Below, piece after piece: positions 1-37,298 of a DNA stretch of 64,000 nt. The stretch is from Chloroflexota bacterium (GTDB lineage Bacteria; Chloroflexota; Anaerolineae; Ardenticatenales; JAADHH01). The stretch is taken from the NCBI GenBank assembly GCA_013151955.1, contig JAADHH010000041.1, forward strand, positions 8,969 to 72,968, given 5' to 3'. Numbering within the stretch: the stretch's first letter is position 1; the number at the start of each line of letters is the position of its first letter. Both the position numbers and the translations under genes were made by a program. The notes beneath the pieces were generated by a model, which had not been told where the DNA came from, searched no databases, and was given only the letters and a program-made list of their open reading frames with translations.

Positions 1-2530
1 CCACTTCCGGTGCCGGCGTCTCCTCCGGCGGGATCGGCTCTTTGGCCAGGGCGATCTCCAGGGCTTGCTCGATGCGTTCGACCAATTCGAAGTGCATGTC
101 ATCACGCACTTCATCGGGCAGGTCATCCAGGTCCTTCTCGTTGCGTTTGGGCAGGATGACAGTGGTCAGCTCTGCGCGATGGGCGGCCAGCATCTTCTGT
201 TTGATGCCGCCCACCGGCAACACCTGGCCACGCAGGGTGATTTCGCCGGTCATGCCCACGTTGGGGCGCACCGGGCGACGGGTGAGGAGAGAGGTGAGGG
301 CCGTCACCATGGTCACACCGGCAGAGGGACCATCTTTGGGGATAGCGCCGGCCGGCACGTGCAAATGGATGTCGGTATTCTCGAAGACATCGTCTGGGAT
401 GTTTTGGCGGCTGGCGCTGGCCCGCACATAGCTTTGGGCGATTTTCGCGGACTCGCGCATCACTTCGCCCAGTTGGCCGGTCAGGGTCAGCCCACCCTTG
501 CCCGGCATCTTCGTTGCCTCGACGAAGAGGATGTCGCCACCGACAGCGGTGACGGCCAGGCCGGTGGCCACCCCCGGACGGGAGGTCCGTTCGGGCACTT
601 CCAGGTAAAACTTTGGTTTGCCCAAGTATTCCAATACAATATCGGCATCTACAATGACGGGCTCTGTCACCGTGCCGGCAGCGATCTTCGTGGCCACCTT
701 GCGGCACACGCTGCCAATTTCCCGTTCCAGGTTGCGGACGCCGGCTTCGCGTGTGAAATCCCGAATGATTGCGCGCAGCCCATCGGGTGTGAATTGGATT
801 TCGTCTTCCCGCAGGGTTGTGGCGCGCATTTGACGGGGAACCAGGTAGCCCTCGGCGATCTTCACCTTCTCGCCCTCGGTGTAGCCGTCCAGTTCTAGAA
901 TCTCCATGCGGTCGCGCAAGGGGGCCGGAATCGGGCTGAGCAGATTGGCGGTGGTGATGAACATGACCTGAGAAAGGTCAAAGTCCACGTCCAGGTAGTG
1001 GTCGCGGAAGGCGTTGTTCTGCTGCGGATCGAGGACTTCGAGCAGGGCGGAGGAGGGGTCGCCCCGCCAATCGGTGCCGATTTTATCCACCTCGTCGAGC
1101 ATAAAGACCGGATTGCGTGTGCCGGCCCGTTTGACTGCCTGGACAATGCGGCCGGGCATTGCGCCGATGTAGGTGCGGCGGTGGCCGCGAATTTCCGCTT
1201 CGTCCCGCATACCACCCAGCGACATGCGCGTAAACTTGCGGCCCATGGCCCGGGCAATCGAACGACCCAGTGAGGTTTTGCCTGTACCCGGCGGCCCCAC
1301 GAAACACAAGATTGCCCCTTCGGCGATGGGGTCTTGCAAAGCCAGGGGGAGGTCTTCCTGCGGCTGCTCCTCCACAGGTTCTGGGGCGACAGCGGAATCT
1401 TCGGTGACCTCTTGCCCATTGCCCGGCTCGATTTCTTCCTCCGGTTCTTCCGCGCGTTCGAGGCGCAGCTTACGAACGGCCAGGTATTCGATGATTCGTT
1501 CTTTGATTTCTTCCAGGTCGTAGTGGTCCTCGTCGAGAACTTTTTGGGCGTGGGGAATATCCAGATTATCGTCCGTGCTGACCTGCCAGGGAAGGTCCGT
1601 AAGCCAGTCCAGGTAGGTTTTGATCACGGAGTATTCTGCGGCCTGGGGGGGCATCTTCTCCATGCGTCCCAACTCACGTAGCGCTTCTTTTTTTGCTTCC
1701 GCGGTCATGCCGGCGGCATCAATCTTTTCGCGGTATTCTTGCGTGACCTGTGCGCCCTCGTCGCCTTCGCCCAATTCTTTCTGGATCGCTTTGAGTTGTT
1801 CGCGCAAAAAGTATTCCCGCTGCATTTTTTCCATTTCGGACTGCGCTTCGGTCTGAATCTTGCGTCCCAGTTCCAGCACTTCGAGCTCTTTGTTCAAGAT
1901 GGTCGTGAGCTTGCGCAACTTGGCACCGATATAGTCTGCCTCCAGAATTTCCTGCGCATCGGGGATGTCCATGCGGATGCTGGTGGCGATGAGGTAGGCA
2001 AGATGGCGCGGGTCATCGGCGTTCATGGCCGCCATCATCAGTTCGTCGGGCAGGTGGGGCACCAGTGCGATGAGCCTCCGGAAAAGGTCGGTCAGGTTTC
2101 GGACCAGCGCTTCGACCTCTACGCTTTCTTCGACGATGTCTGGACGCAGGTGCAGTGATGCCCGGAGGTAGGGTGTTTCGGAGATCCATTGTTCGATTGC
2201 GAACCGTTCCATGCCCTGAATAATGAGGCGCACAGAACCATCGGGGGTCTTGAGCAAACGATGAATCAGCGCGGCGGTGCCGATTTGATACACGTCACTG
2301 GGGCCGGGTTGTTCCACTGTGGGGTCTTTCATAGCCACCAGGCCGATGATGCGGTCGCCAATGACTGCGTCATCTACCAGCCGGATCGATCGGGCCTGTT
2401 CCGCACTGAGTGGCAACACGGTTAACGGAAAAACGACGGTGTTGCGTAGGGGAAGGATGGGCAATTCATGTGGAATGACCATCCCATCAGGATCGGATTG
2501 TGTTAGGAATGGTTGATTGTCTTGGGCCAT
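1..2530 (-). CDS. lon: ATP-dependent Lon protease (C-terminus runs off the left edge of the window)
   Basis: Absent from the supplied ORF track because it is edge-truncated. Reverse-strand translation from ATG 2530-2528 gives [43 protein letters not shown] (Lon N-terminal pattern) and stays open to position 2. Walker [10 protein letters not shown] is encoded near 1268-1300. The left end reads [29 protein letters not shown]...[21 protein letters not shown], the Lon protease domain with the catalytic Ser context PKDGPSAG. Confidence 0.9.
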
Positions 2531-2550
2531 GATGGTATTCTCCCTTTGCC

Positions 2551-3006
2551 TTATAAAACGACTGTAGTAACCGGCACATGTTTTGTCGGGCGATTTTTCC
2601 TTGGCAAAGTAATTGTCAAGAATCCGCCGGCATATTGGGCTTGGATGTTCTCGGAGTCGATGGCCCAAGGAATGTGTACCTGACTAATAAAATCGCCATA
2701 ACAGATTTCCATTTGCTGGTAGACACGATTTGTGGTTTGTTCCGGCGCGTGCCTCGTGCCATTGATCGTAAGTACATCATCCGCAAACATGACCGAAAAA
2801 TCTTGCCCGCGCATACCGGAAACCTCAACGACGACGACAATGGCTTCATCAGATTCAAAAACGTCTGTGGGGGGTTTCCAGGCACGTTGGTGCGAGTAGT
2901 GCATGTTCGAGACCCAACGGCTTCCAATCGCCATCTGTTCGACGAATTGGTTCACTTCCGCTTGTACGCTCACGATTTCTCGAGAACCTCTTTCACGATG
3001 CGTCAT
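2551..3006 (-). CDS. Hsp20/alpha-crystallin family small heat-shock protein
   Basis: 151-aa track ORF with an alpha-crystallin-domain pattern ([22 protein letters not shown]...[12 protein letters not shown]...[12 protein letters not shown]). Lies next to lon. Confidence 0.85.
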
Positions 3007-3042
3007 GTTTCTGCTCCTGTCCAGGCTGGTCTGCTACGAAAA

Positions 3043-3140
3043 TAACGTGTCGAGTGTCAGGTGTCACGTAATGCGTTATGCGTGTTGCGCGCCACTCGCT
3101 CATTGACAATTGAAAATTGACATTTGATCATTGATCATTG
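3043..3140. repeat. Run of about 14 phased heptanucleotide units between the GGDEF gene and hsp20
   Basis: Read directly from the sequence: AACGTGT CGAGTGT CAGGTGT CACGTAA TGCGTTA TGCGTGT TGCGCGC CACTCGC, then CATTGAC AATTGAA AATTGAC ATTTGAT CATTGAT CATTG. The 5' part resembles the family-B repeat (..cacgttattttc..) in reverse orientation. Confidence 0.7.
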
Positions 3141-3193
3141 CACTGCCCTGGTGGTGGCGCGTAACGGCGCTCAGTGTCACGATGCCAAGGCTT

Positions 3194-7025: not shown

Positions 7026-7156
7026 GTATCTTCGCAAAAAGTAGGGGCGTACCCTTGCGGTCGCCCTACGGGGCAGGGTCGCCCTACGGGGCAGGCGCAA
7101 GGCCGGCAAGGGCAGGCGCAAGGCCGTGCCCCTACCCCGAATTATTGAGAAGATAC
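7026..7156. mobile_element. MITE family A, copy 1 (131 bp)
   Basis: Terminal inverted repeat gtatcttcGcaa ... ttgagaagatac. Internal GC-rich tandem duplications (gtcgccctacggggcagg x2, gcaggcgcaaggccg x2). Flanked by near-identical 8-mers aagttcaa (7018-7025) and cagttcaa (7157-7164). Confidence 0.65.
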
Positions 7157-7164
7157 CAGTTCAA

Positions 7165-7323
7165 ATTCTAAAGCAGTCACCATGAGCGATTGCGCGCCAC
7201 CAACAATGAAAATCGTGTGGAGCGTCGAGCGTGAAGGCGTGAAACGTATTGCGTATTGCGTCTTACGCATCACGCATCACGTTTACGTTTTACCTGACAC
7301 CTGACACGTTATTTTCAAAGCAG
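7165..7323. repeat. Family-B composite intergenic repeat (B1 hairpin module + B2 heptad-doublet module)
   Basis: B1: aaagcagtcaccatgagcgattgcgcgccaccaacaatgaaaat, also at 46977-47019. B2: cgtattg cgtattg cgtctta cgcatca cgcatca cgttta cgtttta cctgaca cctgaca cgttattttcaaagcag, also at 32138-32217, 46913-46983, and in reverse at 24307-24396. Its 3' end overlaps the stop codon of the selenoprotein gene. Confidence 0.8.
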
Positions 7324-7551
7324 CGCACGAAGTGCTGTCTCCACCTCCGGATATGCCGGATGCCTCCCGGTCTCTTTCTTGGAATAGACCAACGTATCTT
7401 TCACAGAAATCTCGAAAACGCCTCCCGTGGAGGGGATAAGCGTGAGCGATGATATTTCATGCTCAAAGTCGGCCAAGATATTTTCCGCCATACTGACGGC
7501 TCGTGGACGATAGTTTCAGACGGCGCAGTATTCAATCGTAATCTTTGGCAT
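7315..7551 (-). CDS. SelW/Rdx-family selenoprotein (CxxU), in-frame TGA at 7516-7518 read as selenocysteine
   Basis: Not in the ORF track because it is split by TGA. Hand translation of the minus strand gives MPKITIEYCAV[TGA]NYRPRAVSMAENILADFEHEISSLTLIPSTGGVFEISVKDTLVYSKKETGRHPAYPEVETALRALL, ending at stop 7315-7317. It matches the SelW/Rdx pattern (I/V-x-YC-x-x-C/U-x-Y ... TG-x-FEV/I ... SKK). GGAG sits 6 nt before the ATG. A small hairpin CCGUC-AGUAU-GGCGG (7499-7485) lies 16 nt after the UGA. Confidence 0.75.
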
Positions 7552-7612
7552 GTTGTGCTCCCCCGTAGGAATTGCGCAATACAGTTCTATTGTTACTGCT
7601 CAGGCAAGGCCC

Positions 7613-7741
7613 GTGCCGGATTGAAATCGGCACTGGGTGCCCCACCAAGCCGCTGAAAGCGGCTGAATCTCCACCGGTAGTAGGGGCGCAAAGCTGTGCG
7701 CCCCTACTACCGTGTGGCCAGTGACGGCTTCAGCCCGTCAC
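7613..7741. repeat. Array of four consecutive perfect or near-perfect hairpins
   Basis: Four hairpins: gtgccgg/tcggcac (7613-7633), agccgc-tgaaa-gcggct (7648-7664), a 15-bp perfect stem ggtagtaggggcgca-aagctg-tgcgcccctactacc (7676-7711), and gtgacgg-cttcagc-ccgtcac (7721-7741). None is followed by a T-run. The third shares the gtaggggcg...cgcccctac core with MITE family A. Confidence 0.7.
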
Positions 7742-7835
7742 GGCAAGGCGGCCTGAGCTGTAACGTTCTATTTGAAGTATAGCACAATGCCCAAGGCTCG
7801 TCAAGGTTATCATCGCAAACGGATAAACAACCTCC

Positions 7836-7864: not shown

Positions 7865-8041
7865 CTTTTTACCAAATAATTTGGATATGTATTTTCACAG
7901 ACGGACCCAGACAAAGCCTTTCTTGATCTGAGAAAATCTGTGTCTCTCCAACTCGCCGGATTACGATGCAGCTTCGTCGGACGGCAACAAAGAATTGATG
8001 GTGTCAGGCAACGCAACAAAATGAGCGAGGAGGTACCCTGG

Positions 8042-9361
8042 ATGGCCCGACCGCCATTTCCTCATTCAGCACACACCTTTGAAGAGGCCTACGCAAATAC
8101 CGACTACCGGCTACCACTTCGCGATGAACAGTTGGATTATTTCTACGTTGCGCGTGCGTCAGGGACCTCACGATTGGAGGTGTTGAAGCAAGCACTGTCC
8201 TTGGGCACCGCAAAAGGCCTGGACACCAAGTTCCTGGTTACGGGGCACCTGGGCTGTGGCAAGTCGACGGAGATCAACCGCCTGGTCAAAGACATCGCCA
8301 CACAAGAAGACTTGCGCGAGAACCTGTTTGTGGTGTCCTACTCGGCCAGCGACCTGCTGGACTTGCAAGACGTGGACTATACCGATATTGCCTTCTCCAT
8401 TGTGGCCGGAGTCTACGACCGGCTTCACGAACTGGACATCACCTTCTCCAGCGACACCATCGAGAAGATAACCGAATGGATCAGCATGGAGGTAGAGACG
8501 TTCACCTCCACCACCCTCGGTGCGGAAATCGAGTTGGCCGGTGGACAGGTGGGGATTGGCCGCTTACTCAACATGATGAATCTCATTGGGATCAATATCC
8601 GTGGCGGCGGCACGCGTGGCAAGGAAGTGCGCCGGCTGGTAAAGAAGCGCGCGCCCGAATTACGAGATTTGGTCAACAACCTGCTGGAGGAGTTGCGCGA
8701 GCTTACGGGAATGTCCGTTTTGTTGGTCATCGATGATCTCGATAAATTGCGCAAGGATGATGCCGTGCGCGTGTTTCGCGAGGATGGCCCCTTCCTGACT
8801 CTGCTCAACTGTATGGCCATCTACACCGCGCCCGTTTCTATGATGTACCAATTGGGTGAATCGCCCAGCTTCGAGAAGTACCAACGCTACGCTGTGCCCA
8901 TGTTCAAGGTGGCATCACACAACGGGTCCGCTGAATCGGGCGACCTGGACCGGCTTGTCGAAATGGTCTATCGCCGGGTCTCCCCCGAACTCTTCGTCCC
9001 CGGCATCATTGAACAAATGGCGGTCACGTGCGGTGGTGTCGTTCGCCACCTCATAAAAATGGTACAGGATAGTTGCCTGTATTGTCAGACCTTCCAACAT
9101 CCCGTGATCGATGCCGAGGCCTATTCCTGGGTGCTCGAACGCCTGAAGCAAGACTACAGCAGATGGTTGGGCCGGGCCGACTACGAAATACTGAAACGCA
9201 TACACCAGACGAAATCGTGTCACGACGCAGAAGAGGCCTGGGAATATCTGCAATCGCTCTGTGTCCTCGAATATAGCAACGGGGGGTATTGGTACGACCT
9301 GCATCCCGTTGTACAGATGCTACTTGGAGAGCGAACGCCCAATGCGGAGGAGAGCGCATGA
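8042..9361 (+). CDS. P-loop NTPase (AAA+/ORC-Cdc6- or STAND-like), partner of the downstream NACHT protein
   Basis: The track ORF is 7940..9361 (GTG). I prefer ATG 8042 because GAGGAGG (8027-8033) lies 8 nt upstream. Walker A is VTGHLGCGKST (about 8243-8269). Walker B is VLLVIDDLDKL (about 8719-8748). The stop TGA 9359-9361 overlaps ATG 9358 of the next gene (ATGA). Confidence 0.7.
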   Translation: MARPPFPHSAHTFEEAYANTDYRLPLRDEQLDYFYVARASGTSRLEVLKQALSLGTAKGLDTKFLVTGHLGCGKSTEINRLVKDIATQEDLRENLFVVSYSASDLLDLQDVDYTDIAFSIVAGVYDRLHELDITFSSDTIEKITEWISMEVETFTSTTLGAEIELAGGQVGIGRLLNMMNLIGINIRGGGTRGKEVRRLVKKRAPELRDLVNNLLEELRELTGMSVLLVIDDLDKLRKDDAVRVFREDGPFLTLLNCMAIYTAPVSMMYQLGESPSFEKYQRYAVPMFKVASHNGSAESGDLDRLVEMVYRRVSPELFVPGIIEQMAVTCGGVVRHLIKMVQDSCLYCQTFQHPVIDAEAYSWVLERLKQDYSRWLGRADYEILKRIHQTKSCHDAEEAWEYLQSLCVLEYSNGGYWYDLHPVVQMLLGERTPNAEESA

Positions 9362-12300
9362 CAAAAGATCAGATCGCCGGCCACCTCGCGCAAGCCACAG
9401 ACGAGGAGTTGAATGCTCGTTTTCCGGAACAGATCAACCTGCTCGTCAACATGATCCGTCTGAGCAGGCTGGGGGGCATCGCCACCGTTGAATGTGACGA
9501 CATCGCCCTCCGAAAAAGACTCTTCCGATTCTTCCACAACAAGCTCCGCGAATCCAATATTTATCTCTATCCGGTGGAGGTAAACGAACATGACCTAAAC
9601 CTGGTGCGCTTCCTTCGGGATTTGACGGAACGCTCCGGCTTCAAAGACTTGGAACTCATCGGGCGCTACGAAAACATTGCCCTGTTCATCTATGGCCTGG
9701 AAAAATTCGACACAGAACAGCAAGAACAATTCCTCGCTTCGCTCAACCTGTTCCGCGATACCACCACGATCATCAAGCAGCCGATCATCATTTGGGCCAC
9801 CGGCAAGTTCGTGACGCGCATGGCCCGCGAATCACCAGATTTTTGGAGCTGGAAGGGTATGCTCTTCCAATTCGCCGGCAATGGCCACGAGGCGCAAACA
9901 GAATCGCAATTGCCTCCGCTCCAGCGCTACCTGCACGGCCTGATGAACGATCCCGATTTTGCCATTTGGCGCGATCTATACGTGCCGCTGCGCGGGTTTC
10001 CCCTGCGTTCCCCGCCGGCCTGGAGTGCCGGAGAGCGCGCAACCATCCGCGAACGCCCGGTGAAGGATGATCATCTTTCCCAGAACCTGGCCATGGGGAG
10101 TGCGAAGCCCCCGGCGAGAGGCGAAGCAGATAATTTGCTGAACCTGTTAGCACGTCCGCACAATGTTGTGGTGCTCGGTTCACCCGGCGCAGGAAAAACC
10201 ACGCTGCTTCGCTATCTGGCACAAGCACAGGCCCGCCGTGCCTGGAAAGGCCTGCGCCAGGGAGCGACCCCGGAGCCTATCCCGGTCTTCCTGCGACTCA
10301 ACCTGATGCGCAAAGGACGCACCTTTCACCAACTGATTCACGATGCGTTCCTCTTCTACAACTTTGACTCCATCGAGGAAACTGCCCAATTGAGCCGCCT
10401 GCTTGAAGGCAACCCGCAAGCCAGCGTCGCGGGATTGTCGTCCGACCAGCGCTTTCTGTTCCTCTGCGACGGACTCGGTGAGGTTCCCCGCGAACAACGC
10501 GGTGAACTGCGCCAGGCCATGCAACGCTTGCTCAAGCGGCACTATCTGGTGGTGACATGTCGCACCGAAAAATATCTGCCCATGGACGGCATGGATGTCT
10601 TGCTGATCGAGCCCCTGTCGGACGATGACATCCGCCGTTATGCCATGCGCTATCTGGGCGACAAACGAGGCAAACAACTGGCCCGCGAAGTGTTGGAGGA
10701 CGCGGCCCTGACCGAGCTTGCCCGCAGCCCGCTGGTGCTATACATGCTCACACGCATTGCGGACGACTCCTCCGAGGAGGAAACCCTGCCCATGAATCGG
10801 GGCATCCTCTTCCAGCGTTTCACGGACAATCTCTTGCGTCGTACAGAAGCGGAATGGTGGCGCTTGTTCGGACGCACGCGCAGTCGTGTGAACCTCGACG
10901 TCAGCAGACAAGCCCTGGCCGAACTGGCCTATAAAATGCAACACGACCGCGTGACCCGTATCCACAGCGAACGTTGCTATTGGATCGTCCGCGAGGCTAC
11001 CTATGTCACGCCGACAAATGCTTCGGCAAAGGGTATCTTCGAGGGGTTGATCCATTCCGGGATCATCCGCCTGTCGGGGGACCGTATCCAGGTGGAGTTT
11101 ATGCACCAGGCGGTTCGCGAGTACTTCGCGGCGCTGAAGATCCAGGAAAGCAACGAAAGTCTGGCGTCCTATTTGTCCGACGAGGCGGGGTTGAGGATGT
11201 GGGGCGGCACGGCTACCCTCCTCTTCGGAATTGTCGACAATCATGCCGCTTTGTACCGCGACATTGTTGGGGATGGCACCAATTACCACCGGCTGTGGCT
11301 GGCAGCGCGCGGGCTGGCCACGCTTCCCGATGAATCGGGGGCGCTGGCCGAGATCGGGCGTGCGGTGGCAGACAACCCACACGATTCCGCCGTCTTCGAC
11401 CTGTGTCGCGGGTTGGCGCACGAAGGGCAGGGTGAATTTCGTGAGGCCATCGCCATGTTTCGCCGGGCCATTGAACTGGACCCCCAGCTTGCCTATGCCT
11501 ACTACGATTTGGGTTGCGTCTTTCGCCAACTGGGGTACGTAGACTATGCCATCGCCGCTCAAAAAGAGGCCATTCGACGTCACCCAGAATTTGTAGATGC
11601 CTACAACCACCTGGGGATTACGTTCTTCGAGCAGGAGGATTACCGGCGAGCGCTACAAGTGTTCGAGGCGGCTGTAGAACTGGAACCGGACAACGCACAC
11701 CATTACTTTAATATCGGTCTGGTCCTTCAGGTTTTGCAACAATACAAGCCGGCGGCACAAGCTTTTGTGCGTGCCCTGCAGATCAAAGAGAATTATGCAG
11801 AGGCCGATCGCCAGTTGCAACTGCTTCGCAAGGCCCAAGAGACTCCCAATCTGTCACTGATCGACCAGATCGACCTGTTTCACGACCTGCCGTTGGCCCA
11901 ACGCCTGGCTTTGGCCCAAAACCTGCAAGCAGAAAAAGCCCCCGCCGGCACGATGATCATCGAGCAGGAGCAGCCCGCTCGAAGAATGTACATCATTGCC
12001 GAGGGCGAGGTGGAAGTCTGCTCTGCCGATGCCCAAAACCGGCCACTCAACATCCATCGCCTACAGCGAGGCGACCACTTCAGTGAAGCGGCGCTGCTGG
12101 AAGACGTCCTGCACTCGACCACCGCCACGGCAGTGACCAACGTGAAACTCCTGAGCCTGAGCAGGGAACACTTCGACCAGACAAAATCTCGCTTTCCAGC
12201 CCTCGCCCAAAAACTCGTGCAGACGCGCAACGCCCGTTTGCAACGAGACATTGAACATGCCCTGGAGGAAAGTGCGCGCCGCTACATGGAGCGTGACGGT

Positions 12301-12891
12301 TCCGCGGGAGCGAAAGGTGAAAAAGCGGTAGAACGGGAAATGACGGTGCTGGCCGCCTGCTTGAGCAATACGCACACGCTTACGGCCACCTTGGGGCCTA
12401 CGGGGATGCTGCAATTCCTCCAGGAATTCTATCTGCAAATGATACGTGCCGTCGGTGAAAAGGGTTTGGTCCAAAAATCAGTTGTCGGCGAGAAGGTCGT
12501 CGTCCTGTTCGATGAGCCGCTGGATGCGGTACGCACAGCTCTGGACATGCGTGCCCATTTCGACCGGTTGGTAAAAGCCTGGAAGAGAAAGCAACCCGAT
12601 TTCACGTCGGTTGGTTTGGGCATTGGGCTTTCCACCGGCAAAATCGCGCTGAAAGAAGACGCCGCAGCGCAGATCATGGCTGGGACGCCGGCACTGTTTG
12701 CCGACCGCTTGGCCGAACGGAGCGCCCCCGAGGGAGAAATCCATGTCGATGAGAAGACAAAGATGCTGCTGGGAGACCGTTTCGAGAATCTGATTCCGCT
12801 CGCGAAACCGGTCGTACTGGAAGGACTGGACGAGGAACCGGCACGCCTGTACCGTGTGCCTTGCGTCACCGGGCTGGAGAATGAAGCGTGA
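9358..12891 (+). CDS. Multidomain STAND protein: N-terminal domain of unknown function, NACHT NTPase, TPR repeats, cNMP-binding-like domain, class III cyclase-homology-like domain
   Basis: The track ORF 9289..12891 has an in-frame ATG at 9358 forming an ATGA overlap with the upstream stop.
- NACHT: VVVLGSPGAGKTTLLRYLA (10177-10203 encodes GSPGAGKTT), Walker B FLFLCDGLGEV (about 10453-10482), LVVTCRTEKY, IEPLSDDDIRRYAMRYL.
- About four TPRs (AIAMFRRAIELDPQLAYAYYDLG...VELEPDNAHHYFNIG; about 11440-11830).
- cNMP-binding fold (about 11870-12200; MYIIAEGEVEV...GDHFSEAALLED).
- C-terminal cyclase-homology-like region (about 12340-12860; MTVLAACLSNTHTL...VGLGIGLSTGKIAL). Confidence 0.8.
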   Translation: MTKDQIAGHLAQATDEELNARFPEQINLLVNMIRLSRLGGIATVECDDIALRKRLFRFFHNKLRESNIYLYPVEVNEHDLNLVRFLRDLTERSGFKDLELIGRYENIALFIYGLEKFDTEQQEQFLASLNLFRDTTTIIKQPIIIWATGKFVTRMARESPDFWSWKGMLFQFAGNGHEAQTESQLPPLQRYLHGLMNDPDFAIWRDLYVPLRGFPLRSPPAWSAGERATIRERPVKDDHLSQNLAMGSAKPPARGEADNLLNLLARPHNVVVLGSPGAGKTTLLRYLAQAQARRAWKGLRQGATPEPIPVFLRLNLMRKGRTFHQLIHDAFLFYNFDSIEETAQLSRLLEGNPQASVAGLSSDQRFLFLCDGLGEVPREQRGELRQAMQRLLKRHYLVVTCRTEKYLPMDGMDVLLIEPLSDDDIRRYAMRYLGDKRGKQLAREVLEDAALTELARSPLVLYMLTRIADDSSEEETLPMNRGILFQRFTDNLLRRTEAEWWRLFGRTRSRVNLDVSRQALAELAYKMQHDRVTRIHSERCYWIVREATYVTPTNASAKGIFEGLIHSGIIRLSGDRIQVEFMHQAVREYFAALKIQESNESLASYLSDEAGLRMWGGTATLLFGIVDNHAALYRDIVGDGTNYHRLWLAARGLATLPDESGALAEIGRAVADNPHDSAVFDLCRGLAHEGQGEFREAIAMFRRAIELDPQLAYAYYDLGCVFRQLGYVDYAIAAQKEAIRRHPEFVDAYNHLGITFFEQEDYRRALQVFEAAVELEPDNAHHYFNIGLVLQVLQQYKPAAQAFVRALQIKENYAEADRQLQLLRKAQETPNLSLIDQIDLFHDLPLAQRLALAQNLQAEKAPAGTMIIEQEQPARRMYIIAEGEVEVCSADAQNRPLNIHRLQRGDHFSEAALLEDVLHSTTATAVTNVKLLSLSREHFDQTKSRFPALAQKLVQTRNARLQRDIEHALEESARRYMERDGSAGAKGEKAVEREMTVLAACLSNTHTLTATLGPTGMLQFLQEFYLQMIRAVGEKGLVQKSVVGEKVVVLFDEPLDAVRTALDMRAHFDRLVKAWKRKQPDFTSVGLGIGLSTGKIALKEDAAAQIMAGTPALFADRLAERSAPEGEIHVDEKTKMLLGDRFENLIPLAKPVVLEGLDEEPARLYRVPCVTGLENEA

Positions 12892-13026: not shown

Positions 13027-14025
13027 CTATCGTTTATCGTCCATTTTCTGAATGAACGCATCGAGCGAAGTGGTGTCGAGGGCCACATCGAGCAAGCTCT
13101 CCAGGTGTGCAGCATCCAGCGTGCGCAGTTTCACCTCCACCCCGGAAGATACCCGCCCGAAGCGGTGCTCCAGCACCCGCAACAGTTGCCGCAGCGCGCC
13201 CTGTCTCAGGCCTTGCTCCAGACCCTGCTCCAAGCCTTGTTCCAGGCCCTGTTCCAAGCCTTGCTCCATCCACTTCTCCGCAATCGTGGCCATCAGTTCC
13301 CCTCCTTCCGGGACTCTCGCCTCCACAACTCTCCGCAGTTCTTCTTCCCGAAGCTTATCCGTCCCTACCGACAGATACCGCAACAACGTCTCCAGGTATT
13401 CCAGCCCCGTCTCCTGGCCTAACAGTTCTGCTCCTAACCCCAAAATATGCCCCAGATGCGTTTCTACATCATCCCGCAGAATGTACTTCAGCGTCAGCAA
13501 CCCCACCTGCAAGAGCACCGCTCCCTTGATCTCTTCGTCGCTGTAGGCCGACAGGTCGCACAGACAATACCGGTAGTCGGGCACGTACGCCCTCATCTCT
13601 TCCGGCGCGTCGAACAGGCTCCACAGGTCTAGCCCTACCTTCCATCTCGCTACCCCGTGATACAACACCACCGGCAGGATTGGCAACAGTTGCCCCTGCT
13701 GTCGCAAGTCTTGCTCCCATATCCGCACCACGTAGCGCAACAACTGAAAGGCAACACCCTCATCAGGATAGCTCTTGTGCTCGAACAGCACGTAAACGCG
13801 CGCTTCGCCTCCCTCTTTCCAGGCTACTTTGTAGAGCAGATCCGAAAAGTGTGTCCGCAACTCCGTGTCGACAAAGGTATCTTTGCTCGCTTCCAAGGTG
13901 GACAGGTCGAGCAAGTCTACCACCTCGGGCGGCAAGTAGTAGCGTATGAAGTCGCGGGCCGCCTCCCCGTGGGAGAGCAATTGTTTGAAAAAGTGGTCGT
14001 GGGGTGTGCTGATCCCGGTCATCAT
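13027..14025 (-). CDS. Rpn/YhgA-family recombination-promoting nuclease / putative transposase (PD-(D/E)xK) with DUF4351-like C-terminus
   Basis: N-terminus PHDHFFKQLLSHGEAARDFIRYYLP...FSDLLYKV...VYVLFEHKSYPD is typical of the Rpn/transposase_31 family. The C-terminus has an (EQGL)x5 repeat encoded by 12-nt tandem repeats (about 13198-13265), followed by a LRQLLRVLEHRFG... tail. Confidence 0.8.
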   Translation of the reverse strand: MMTGISTPHDHFFKQLLSHGEAARDFIRYYLPPEVVDLLDLSTLEASKDTFVDTELRTHFSDLLYKVAWKEGGEARVYVLFEHKSYPDEGVAFQLLRYVVRIWEQDLRQQGQLLPILPVVLYHGVARWKVGLDLWSLFDAPEEMRAYVPDYRYCLCDLSAYSDEEIKGAVLLQVGLLTLKYILRDDVETHLGHILGLGAELLGQETGLEYLETLLRYLSVGTDKLREEELRRVVEARVPEGGELMATIAEKWMEQGLEQGLEQGLEQGLEQGLRQGALRQLLRVLEHRFGRVSSGVEVKLRTLDAAHLESLLDVALDTTSLDAFIQKMDDKR

Positions 14026-14075: not shown

Positions 14076-14207
14076 GTATCTTCTCAAAAAGTAGGGGCGT
14101 ACCCTTGCGGTCGCCCTACGGGGCAGCGGTCGCCCTATGGGGCAGGCGCAAGGCCGGCAAGGGCAGGCGCAAGGCCGTGCCCCTACCCCGAATTATTGAG
14201 AAGATAC
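14076..14207. mobile_element. MITE family A, copy 2 (132 bp)
   Basis: TIR gtatcttctcaa ... ttgagaagatac. Perfect 8-bp direct repeat gatgcgtg immediately on both sides (14068-14075 and 14208-14215). Near-identical to copy 1. Confidence 0.75.
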
Positions 14208-20752: not shown

Positions 20753-20844
20753 GTATCTTCTCAATAATCCGTGGTAGGGGCATAGCCTTGCGCTTGCCCC
20801 GTAGGGCGACCGCAAGGGATCGCCCCTACTTTTTGAGAAGATAC
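20753..20844. mobile_element. MITE family A, copy 3 (92-bp deletion derivative, opposite orientation)
   Basis: TIR gtatcttctcaa ... ttgagaagatac. Perfect 8-bp target-site duplication ttactttg at 20745-20752 and 20845-20852. It lacks the internal tandem duplications of copies 1 and 2. It sits 20 nt upstream of the GTG start of the REC-ParA gene. Confidence 0.8.
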
Positions 20845-35522: not shown

Positions 35523-37298
35523 TTATACCTGCTCTTGAATAAATGCTTCAATGATGTCGCCCGGTTGGAGTGCCTCAAATCCTTCCAGTCCAATTCCACA
35601 TTCGTATCCGGTGGCGACTTCTCGAACATCATCCTTGAACCGTCGCAGCGAGGAGATGGTGCTGCTGTGCAGCTCTTGTTCGCCGCGCCACACACGAGCA
35701 AACGCGCCACGTGTAATCTTTCCCTCGCGCACCATGCAGCCGGCAATGTTGCCGCGGCCTCGTATGTGGAAGACTTCTTGCACCTCGGCGCGTCCGATGG
35801 TAACATCCTGGTAGACCGGTTCGAGCATACCGGTGAGTGCTTTTTCCACATCATCTACGAGTTGGTAGATGACTTTGTAGGTTCGAATATCCACGCCTTC
35901 TTTTTCGGCAACGGTATGGGCCGAAATGTCACCCTCTACGTTAAATCCAATGACGATGGCGTTGGAAGCCGCTGCTAACATAATGTCTGTTTCGGATATA
36001 TTGCCCGTACCCTTACGCAGTATCTTCACGCGGAGGTTTTCATCGCCAAGTTGTTGAAGGGAATTGACAATTGGCTCTAGGGAGCCCTGAACATCCACCT
36101 TGAGGATGATATTTAGCTTCTGCACCTGACCTGCTTGGAAGCGTGCATAGATATCCTGCAAGGTCATGCGTTGGGGGCGTTTGGTCAGGTCTGCGCGTCT
36201 GGACGCTTCGGCTTCTGCCCGCGAGCGTGCTTTACGCTCGGTGGGCATTACCTCGAAGAGTTCTCCAGCTTCTGGGATGCCATTGAAACCCAAGACTTGA
36301 ACGGGCGTAGAGGGGGGGGCTTCCTCAATGCGTTTGCCCTGATCATTGAACATCGCGCGCACACGACCACTGACTTTGCCGGCCACAAAATTATCACCGC
36401 TGTGCAGGCAGCCGTTTTGCACCAATACCGTCGCCATGGGCCCGCGCGTCCGGTCGAGCGTTGCCTCCAGGATCGTGCCGACGGCGGGGCGATCGGGATT
36501 GGCCCGAAAATTCGACATGTCCACAACGAGCAGGATCATGTCCAGAAGCGTGTCAATGCCCACCCCCTGCTTGGCAGAGGTGGGGACGACGATGGTGTCC
36601 CCGCCCCAATCTTCCGGCACAAGATCGACTTCGGCCATTTGCTGCATGACCCGGTCTGGGTTCGCGTTTTCCACATCGATTTTGTTCAGCACGACGATGA
36701 CCGGCACCTGCGCTGCTCTGGCGTGGTCCAGGGCCTCTTTGGTCTGGGGCATAACCCCATCGTTGGCGGCGATCACCAGAATGGCGATGTCGGTGACCTG
36801 GGCTCCCCGCGCGCGCATGGCCGTGAAGGCTTCATGTCCGGGCGTGTCGATGAATGTGATTTTCCGGCCCTGCCGTTCCACCTGGTAGGCTCCTGTGTGC
36901 TGGGTTATCCCCCCATGTTCTTCTTCGGTTACGCGCGTTTTGCGGATGGCGTCCAGCAGCGTCGTTTTGCCGTGGTCCACGTGGCCAAGTACGGTGACGA
37001 TGGGGGGGCGTGGCTGCAGGTCTTCTTCGCGTTCGTCCGCATACAGGTCTCGCTTCGTAGGAGTGGCTGCTTCCTCATGTTCTTCGCTTACCTCTTCTTC
37101 TGTTTCCCGGACGGTGAACCCCATTTCCTCAGCAACAATCGCTGCGGTATCAAAGTCAATCGTCTGGTTGATGTTGGCCATTACGCCATTCGCCATCAAC
37201 TCTTTGATGACGCTGATGGGGCTGGCTTCCATCAGATCGGCAAGTTCCCGAACGGTAATGGTTTCAGGAATAACGATGTTTTTGTTCTGTTGGCTCAT
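35523..37298 (-). CDS. infB: Translation initiation factor IF-2
   Basis: GTPase motifs VLGHVDHGKTTLLD, DTPGHEAF and NKID. C-terminal IF-2 domains. Operon context. Confidence 0.95.
   Translation of the reverse strand: MSQQNKNIVIPETITVRELADLMEASPISVIKELMANGVMANINQTIDFDTAAIVAEEMGFTVRETEEEVSEEHEEAATPTKRDLYADEREEDLQPRPPIVTVLGHVDHGKTTLLDAIRKTRVTEEEHGGITQHTGAYQVERQGRKITFIDTPGHEAFTAMRARGAQVTDIAILVIAANDGVMPQTKEALDHARAAQVPVIVVLNKIDVENANPDRVMQQMAEVDLVPEDWGGDTIVVPTSAKQGVGIDTLLDMILLVVDMSNFRANPDRPAVGTILEATLDRTRGPMATVLVQNGCLHSGDNFVAGKVSGRVRAMFNDQGKRIEEAPPSTPVQVLGFNGIPEAGELFEVMPTERKARSRAEAEASRRADLTKRPQRMTLQDIYARFQAGQVQKLNIILKVDVQGSLEPIVNSLQQLGDENLRVKILRKGTGNISETDIMLAAASNAIVIGFNVEGDISAHTVAEKEGVDIRTYKVIYQLVDDVEKALTGMLEPVYQDVTIGRAEVQEVFHIRGRGNIAGCMVREGKITRGAFARVWRGEQELHSSTISSLRRFKDDVREVATGYECGIGLEGFEALQPGDIIEAFIQEQV

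Follow-up and report, generated by a model that had tools for sequence, protein, structure and literature searches.

What does the minus strand encode between positions 7551 and 7315 of the window (by which we mean the whole 64-kb stretch of DNA analysed), where the mechanical list of open reading frames offers the C-terminal 58-aa piece 7491-7315 alone? Translation of this strand gives MPKITIEYCAV-TGA-NYRPRAVSMAENILADFEHEISSLTLIPSTGGVFEISVKDTLVYSKKETGRHPAYPEVETALRALL-TGA, i.e., 77 sense codons plus one internal TGA and a terminal TGA, with the redox motif C9-A-V-U12 placed directly after ITIEY. The internal TGA may be a selenocysteine codon, a nonsense mutation, a stop codon preceding an independent short gene, or a codon read as some other amino acid; as will be argued here, the locus is very probably a genuine SelW-like selenoprotein gene whose internal TGA is decoded with the help of a SECIS hairpin. 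The elements of the gene are the following:

7315-7551, minus strand: coding sequence of a probable SelW-like (Rdx family) selenoprotein of 78 residues including Sec12, on the basis of its translation, profile matches and orthologs
7558-7564, minus strand: Shine-Dalgarno-like GGGGGAG, read from the sequence, 6 nt 5' of the ATG at 7551
7525-7527, minus strand: Cys9 codon TGC, first position of CxxU (motif C-A-V-U), three codons before the TGA
7516-7518, minus strand: in-frame UGA, proposed Sec codon, second position of CxxU; TGA in 64 of 64 orthologous sequences, Cys in CxxC relatives
7489-7491, minus strand: internal ATG (Met21), taken by gene callers as the start of the 58-aa product and not the true start
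7317-7315, minus strand: terminal TGA stop of the SelW-like gene, from the translation

The family to which the product belongs emerges from profile searches in which the full 78-residue product, with U replaced by C, was the query. Pfam PF10262 (Rdx) is matched with 80.6 bits (cutoff 22.6; E = 9.7e-23) over profile positions 1-73 of 74, an E-value that places the coding sequence far beyond chance, and NCBIfam models TIGR02174 (CXXU_selWTH) and NF041051 (SelT/SelW/SelH family (seleno)protein) are matched with 61.6 bits (cutoff 34.2) and 88.1 bits (cutoff 88), respectively. Among solved structures, the Cys-form Rdx proteins Atu0228 (2fa8, E = 1.5e-15), SAV_2001 (3dex), 2ojl, 2oka, 2obk and 2p0g align over 61-76 residues, with E-values from 1.5e-15 to 3e-8, and carry CxxC in the same columns in which the window gene has CxxU; they differ from it in having Cys at the second redox position, in their length (103-108 aa as deposited) and in that they need no recoding signal. 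The mouse SelW structure 2npb is matched more weakly (E = 0.0014); mammalian selenoprotein W has the family and the CxxU motif in common with the window gene, whereas its SECIS belongs to the 3' UTR; the hairpin described below, by contrast, is part of the coding sequence and directly follows the UGA. The eukaryotic SECIS is a 3' UTR element that makes use of SBP2 and eEFSec.

Because the product is similar to the solved Rdx structures, its sequence implies a thioredoxin-like fold, and from the combination of fold and motif it is most likely a thiol/selenol oxidoreductase, predicted to cycle via a Cys9-Sec12 selenenylsulfide. These data bear out what a first-pass annotation had read from the same DNA, namely that minus strand 7551-7315 is coding with an internal TGA, that it belongs to the SelW/Rdx family (all three models score above their thresholds), that a GGAG ribosome-binding site precedes it (the GGGGGAG at 7564-7558), and that the TGA falls on the second redox position, the motif of the window gene matching the CxxC of 2fa8, 3dex and 2ojl in every column. 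The comparison with Cys-form relatives which that annotation proposed gives a Cys in the U column, both in the solved structures and in the CxxC forms present in the databases.

The behaviour of the TGA in other genomes was followed in a single scan of a collection holding one genome per species, which yielded 63 loci encoding relatives, from at least eight phylum-level groups; together with the window gene these make up a set of 64 sequences. The closest relatives, 90-91% identical (L001 and L002), belong to two MAGs of uncultured Ardenticatenales (Chloroflexota); the other hosts include Acidimicrobiia, Gemmatimonadota, Verrucomicrobiota, Desulfuromonadales, an Anaerolineales MAG and Bacillaceae such as Halalkalibacter, Neobacillus and Salibacterium, and more. 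The U column is occupied by TGA in every one of the 64 sequences and the reading frame is intact, so that neither the sense codon nor the frameshift which, according to the first-pass annotation, would have betrayed a pseudogene was encountered. The first redox codon, on the other hand, is TGC in 52 sequences, TGT in nine and TGA in three; this synonymous variation of the Cys codon indicates that the 11 codons upstream of the UGA are translated and under constraint at the protein level.

Had a CxxC Rdx gene been turned into a pseudogene by a nonsense mutation, or apparently so by an error of assembly, this would account for the fact that gene callers take the UGA as a stop and return just a 58-aa fragment. 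Since, however, all 64 independent assemblies, spread over many phyla, have the TGA in this column, with conserved flanks and an unbroken frame, this explanation is effectively refuted, and the covarying hairpin found 3' of the UGA speaks against it as well; we consider its probability negligible. The same can be said of the possibility that the real gene is the 58-aa frame starting at the internal ATG 7491, the upstream 11 codons being an untranslated leader. An ATG is indeed present there, and the precomputed database annotation of this frame still matches PF10262. Yet a Shine-Dalgarno sequence precedes 7551 (its counterpart in L001 is GGGGGAA) and none precedes 7491, the 11 upstream codons spell the conserved family motif I-E-Y-C-x-x with its synonymously varying Cys, and the fragment is devoid of the family-defining redox motif. 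Moreover, an in-frame ATG at or near the 7491 position, on the downstream side of the UGA, is missing from about half of the orthologs, so that in these organisms the conserved C-terminal domain could not be expressed separately. Hence a start at 7491 is scarcely believable, and a SelW-like selenoprotein beginning at 7551 is the reading retained.

The fragment is nevertheless what the protein collections contain. Database proteins P0001-P0008 are 57-61 aa long and cover 72-74% of the query; when the 58-aa piece is used in an exhaustive search, the best 150 representatives include 78 short fragments lacking CxxC and about two dozen full-length CxxC forms (e.g., IEYCTGCR, ITYCRLCG, VEYCVPCGY). 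The window gene itself is present in public collections only as a 58-aa fragment without active site, and what follows from its identification is a correction of this annotation. Six further entries (P0019, P0021, P0039, P0103, P0108 and P0157) display a W in the Sec column, as in EYCTSWNY; these are best explained as annotation artefacts, the TGA having been translated under a code in which TGA = Trp.

Two groups of orthologs deserve a separate mention. In three independent Verrucomicrobia assemblies (L035:10016-10027, L036:10016-10027 and L049:6997-7008) the active site reads TAT TGA GGA ATG TGA AAC, so that TGA is found at both redox positions (UxxU); the single hairpin follows the second UGA at its usual position. 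Reviews of 2022 and 2026 (PMC9312934, PMC13188914) describe the SELENOW-like protein as PF10262 and give the family only as CxxU with one Sec. In seven Acidimicrobiia orthologs (L003, L004, L006, L010, L012, L014 and L018) there is no Shine-Dalgarno sequence and TAGGAT or TAGGGT stands 6-8 nt before the ATG, which suggests that these genes may be expressed from leaderless transcripts.

If the UGA is decoded, a signal is expected in its vicinity, and here the element of interest is the following:

7485-7499, minus strand: SECIS-like hairpin CCGUCA-GUA-UGGCGG, with a 6-bp stem and the loop GUA, starting 16 nt after the UGA

Numbered from the U of the UGA, the stem is formed by +20-25 and +29-34 and the loop by +26-28, with the loop G and U at +26 and +27. 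Taken singly, the window hairpin (about -7.8 kcal/mol) does not fold beyond chance when compared with shuffled sequences (z = +0.38), and in a positional test of minimum free energy it ranks 17th among the approximately 58 windows of 30 nt of its own gene; averaged over all orthologs, the segment that immediately follows the UGA exceeds the other windows of the same genes in stability by 2 sd (mean z -2.0).

The weight of the argument is carried by the comparison of the orthologs. In about 40 of them all six pairs are formed in a register identical to that of the window gene; all sequences having this register carry a GUN or GGN loop, whose first base is always G, and the ortholog alignment A1 shows no variation at G26 and a conservation of at least 90% at U27. 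In an ungapped alignment of 34 sequences, which had been pre-selected for pairing, 98.5% of the cells are paired, as against 25-50% if the 3' side of the helix is displaced by 1-3 columns; both sides have changed in four of the six pairs (e.g., C-G to G-C or U-A), and the 28 cells with changes on both sides compare with 5.4 +/- 1.9 in shuffles, a number reached by none of 500. The same holds when no selection is applied: for all 60 distinct sequences, 83% of the cells are paired (75 +/- 1.2 in shuffles) and 25 are changed on both sides (11 +/- 2.4), either value being reached by 0 of 1000 shuffles. RNAalifold, in turn, returns a helix identical to the proposed stem. Thus both the hairpin starting 16 nt after the UGA and the support by covariation which the first-pass annotation had asked of it are confirmed (0/500 and 0/1000 shuffles in the selected and unselected set, respectively). 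Some of the covarying pairs join the synonymous third base of a Val codon (GUC/GUG) to the third base of the codon two positions further on, where the change alters the residue (UUG Leu vs UUC Phe), and constraint on the protein does not by itself readily account for this.

The SECIS of E. coli fdhF, the reference for SelB-dependent recoding, provides a useful yardstick. In fdhF of the E. coli K-12 genome the UGA is codon 140, the loop GGUC lies at +22-25 and its G and U at +23 and +24; the window hairpin resembles this SECIS in lying directly 3' of the UGA and in having G-U in the apical loop, but differs from it by a much shorter stem (6 bp), a loop of 3 nt (GUA) and the absence of an evident bulged U. 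Position, a loop with G(U) and compensatory pairing, i.e., the attributes of a bacterial SECIS, support its classification as a candidate SECIS, the binding of SelB to it being putative. Rfam searches of the whole window at gathering score, and of 7300-7600 with E-values up to 10, give no SECIS family but only tRNAs and chance-level matches, a result that means only that the window hairpin is not covered by the curated models. What the comparison of the 64 sequences adds is a covariation-supported picture of a very small SECIS hairpin in the SelW-like family.

A variant of the hairpin, about 5 nt nearer to the UGA, is seen in the Acidimicrobiia-type orthologs (L003-L021, L025, L027, L028 and L046); here the stem is formed by +15-20 and +26-31 and the loop is CGUGA or CGUGC. 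The shift implies that the SECIS register varies between clades within one and the same protein family.

Could the UGA be read through, though not as selenocysteine, either by near-cognate suppression with Trp or Cys in an organism having no Sec machinery or as a result of UGA reassignment? Two observations might be invoked in its favor. One is represented by the family entries with W in the U column, for which translation under a TGA = Trp code is, as mentioned above, the better explanation; the other is that no sel genes are found in the 64-kb window. Indeed, tblastn searches with E. coli SelA, SelB and SelD, and the inspection of the tRNAs, revealed neither selA, selB, selD nor tRNA-Sec within these 64 kb, the only tRNAs of the window being tRNA-Thr, tRNA-His and tRNA-Arg. 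The single match of these tblastn searches, SelB-like and located at 36489-37001, was discarded, being part of IF-2 (35523-37298; TIGR00487, 783 bits), encoded in a nusA-infB-nrnA-truB-ribF block. Likewise, apart from the SelW-like gene, a search of the window for other open frames interrupted at CxxU or UxxC gave only out-of-frame, low-complexity candidates.

Several facts weigh against such a non-selenocysteine read-through. TGA is the commonest genuine stop of the window, terminating 18 of 37 long open frames and seven of the 14 identified genes, cheW, cheA and truB included, and the SelW-like gene itself ends in TGA. Since about half of the other genes of the window end in this way, the genetic code is not reassigned, and since UGA is a normal stop in this organism, its decoding at 7518-7516 must depend on the local context. 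Furthermore, the UGA is located at a catalytic position where Sec and Cys are interchangeable, the conserved hairpin corresponds in its geometry to a bacterial SECIS, and orthologs of the gene are physically linked to selD, selA, selB and selC. This linkage is most evident in 13 Bacillaceae loci (L026, L030-L034, L037, L040, L044, L051, L053, L055 and L062; about 8800-11700 in most), in which the immediate neighbours of the SelW-like ortholog are a divergent selD on one side and a co-oriented selA on the other, with selB within 10 kb in nine cases and tRNA-Sec in six; in L015 selD is found 8.5 kb from the ortholog. Altogether, insertion of an amino acid other than selenocysteine appears very unlikely, and selenocysteine remains the preferred assignment for the UGA.

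The selD-selW-selA arrangement of the Bacillaceae could also suggest, as an unlikely reading at the level of the family, that SelW-like proteins act in selenium handling itself. In the literature searched no account was found that combines SelW, selD and selA in Bacillus.

On these grounds we infer for the window gene a SelB-dependent insertion of selenocysteine, the presence of the Sec machinery in the source genome and a redox function of the product. The sequence of events may be envisaged as follows. Translation would start at ATG 7551, behind GGGGGAG, and would not terminate at the UGA 7518-7516, where the hairpin 7499-7485 would recruit SelB with GTP and Sec-tRNA(Sec); selenocysteine would be inserted at this codon and translation would run on to the terminal UGA 7317-7315, which is not accompanied by a hairpin of this type and would accordingly be left to act as a stop. 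The expected product is a 78-residue redox protein having a thioredoxin fold and a Cys-x-x-Sec active site. The gene would thereby mark its Ardenticatenales-like host as a probable selenium user.

How does this gene stand among the SelW-like selenoproteins already known? A survey of bacterial genomes published in 2006 counted ten SelW-like proteins and found very few or no Cys homologs in organisms using Sec (PMC1794560), and in the Global Ocean Sampling data SelW-like was the most abundant selenoprotein family, with 427 Sec as against 56 Cys forms (PMC2398784). The window gene shares with the prokaryotic members of the family a length of about 75-80 aa, the N-terminal motif [IL]-E-[YF]-C-x-x-U, a UGA-encoded Sec, a hairpin located within the coding sequence and the scarcity of Cys homologs among close relatives (PMC1794560, PMC2398784, PMC13188914). 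Compared with that family it is particular only in its Ardenticatenales-like host and in the cheW-cheA-RR/GGDEF neighbourhood described below; as judged from the sequence, neither its protein nor its predicted recoding signal departs from what is known. The SelW-like family is among the commonest and best-catalogued bacterial selenoproteins, the window gene is what a specialist would expect, and general knowledge of selenoproteins is left unchanged by it.

The surroundings of the gene raise a further question, namely whether it is functionally tied to the chemosensory genes lying downstream. The features concerned, the last three of which were identified by Pfam matches and are co-oriented with the selW-like gene and downstream of it, are:

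7776-7804, minus strand: promoter-like site TTGACG-17 nt-TATACT with an upstream TG (TGnTATACT), from a consensus scan
7005-6505, minus strand: cheW
6508-4715, minus strand: cheA
4714-3194, minus strand: response regulator with a GGDEF domain

Read along the minus strand, the promoter-like site is followed by the leader, the selW-like gene, a spacer of roughly 310 nt, cheW, cheA, RR-GGDEF, an hsp20-like ORF and Lon. The site 7804-7776 would act as a promoter, with a leader of roughly 220 nt. It is contained in a 58-nt block (7765-7822) that is 100% identical to L001; around this block the non-coding flanks and the leader cannot be aligned to L001, and for the coding DNA the identity is about 90%.

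L001 and L002 both have the order selW-like, cheW, cheA, RR-GGDEF, and in the latter the gap between the selW-like gene and cheW amounts to about 24-40 nt, which makes their co-transcription plausible in L002. In addition, a histidine kinase and a CheA-like hybrid kinase follow the SelW-like gene in L061 (Gemmatimonadetes). The idea that chemosensory linkage is a feature of the whole family was rejected, since it concerns only the three close Ardenticatenales sequences and L061, and among the loci compared no neighbouring gene is conserved across the SelW-like family. It is therefore a speculation of low probability that the SelW-like selenoprotein is co-transcribed with cheW-cheA-RR/GGDEF and provides these genes with an input sensing redox state or selenium; if true, the redox state would be coupled to c-di-GMP signalling in these Chloroflexota.

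The region between selW and cheW is hypervariable and built of short tandem repeats. At 7245-7307 it contains the heptamers CGTATTG, ACGCATC and ACCTGAC, each in 2.3-2.4 tandem copies; in the corresponding spacer of L001 (about 515-610) other heptamers are present, CAGATGT about four times and GCGTATT about twice, and in L002 there is almost no spacer between the two genes. Just upstream of cheW, at 7059-7123, there are GC-rich tandem repeats consisting of an 18-nt unit, GGTCGCCCTACGGGGCAG, in 2.1 copies, followed by about three copies of a 12-nt unit.

The leader of the selW-like gene harbors another repeat. The motif GTAGGGGCG has five occurrences in the window, as against 0.41 expected (7675-7712, 7041-7049, 14091-14099 and 20821-20829), and at 7675-7712, within the leader, it forms a near-perfect palindrome of 19+19 nt that is absent from L001. 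It may represent a small dispersed palindromic (REP-like) element.

Beyond the chemosensory genes, the minus strand of 1-3006 is occupied by the hsp20-like ORF (3006-2551) and by the gene for a Lon protease, which extends beyond the start of the window. A candidate conserved stretch without ORFs at 900-3190 was discarded, being made up of these same two genes; the stretch looked empty because the ORF list omits frames that run off the window end.

On the other side, divergent from the selenoprotein gene, the interval 7940-12891 (plus strand) and 13027-14025 (minus strand) begins with an ORF having a weak match to KAP-type P-loop NTPases, followed by the gene for a 1200-aa NACHT-TPR-cyclic-nucleotide-binding protein and then by a YhgA-like (Transposase_31) gene, which adjoins a tRNA cluster at 14.6-15.0 kb. 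This KAP-NACHT-YhgA region may be a mobile or defence-like island.
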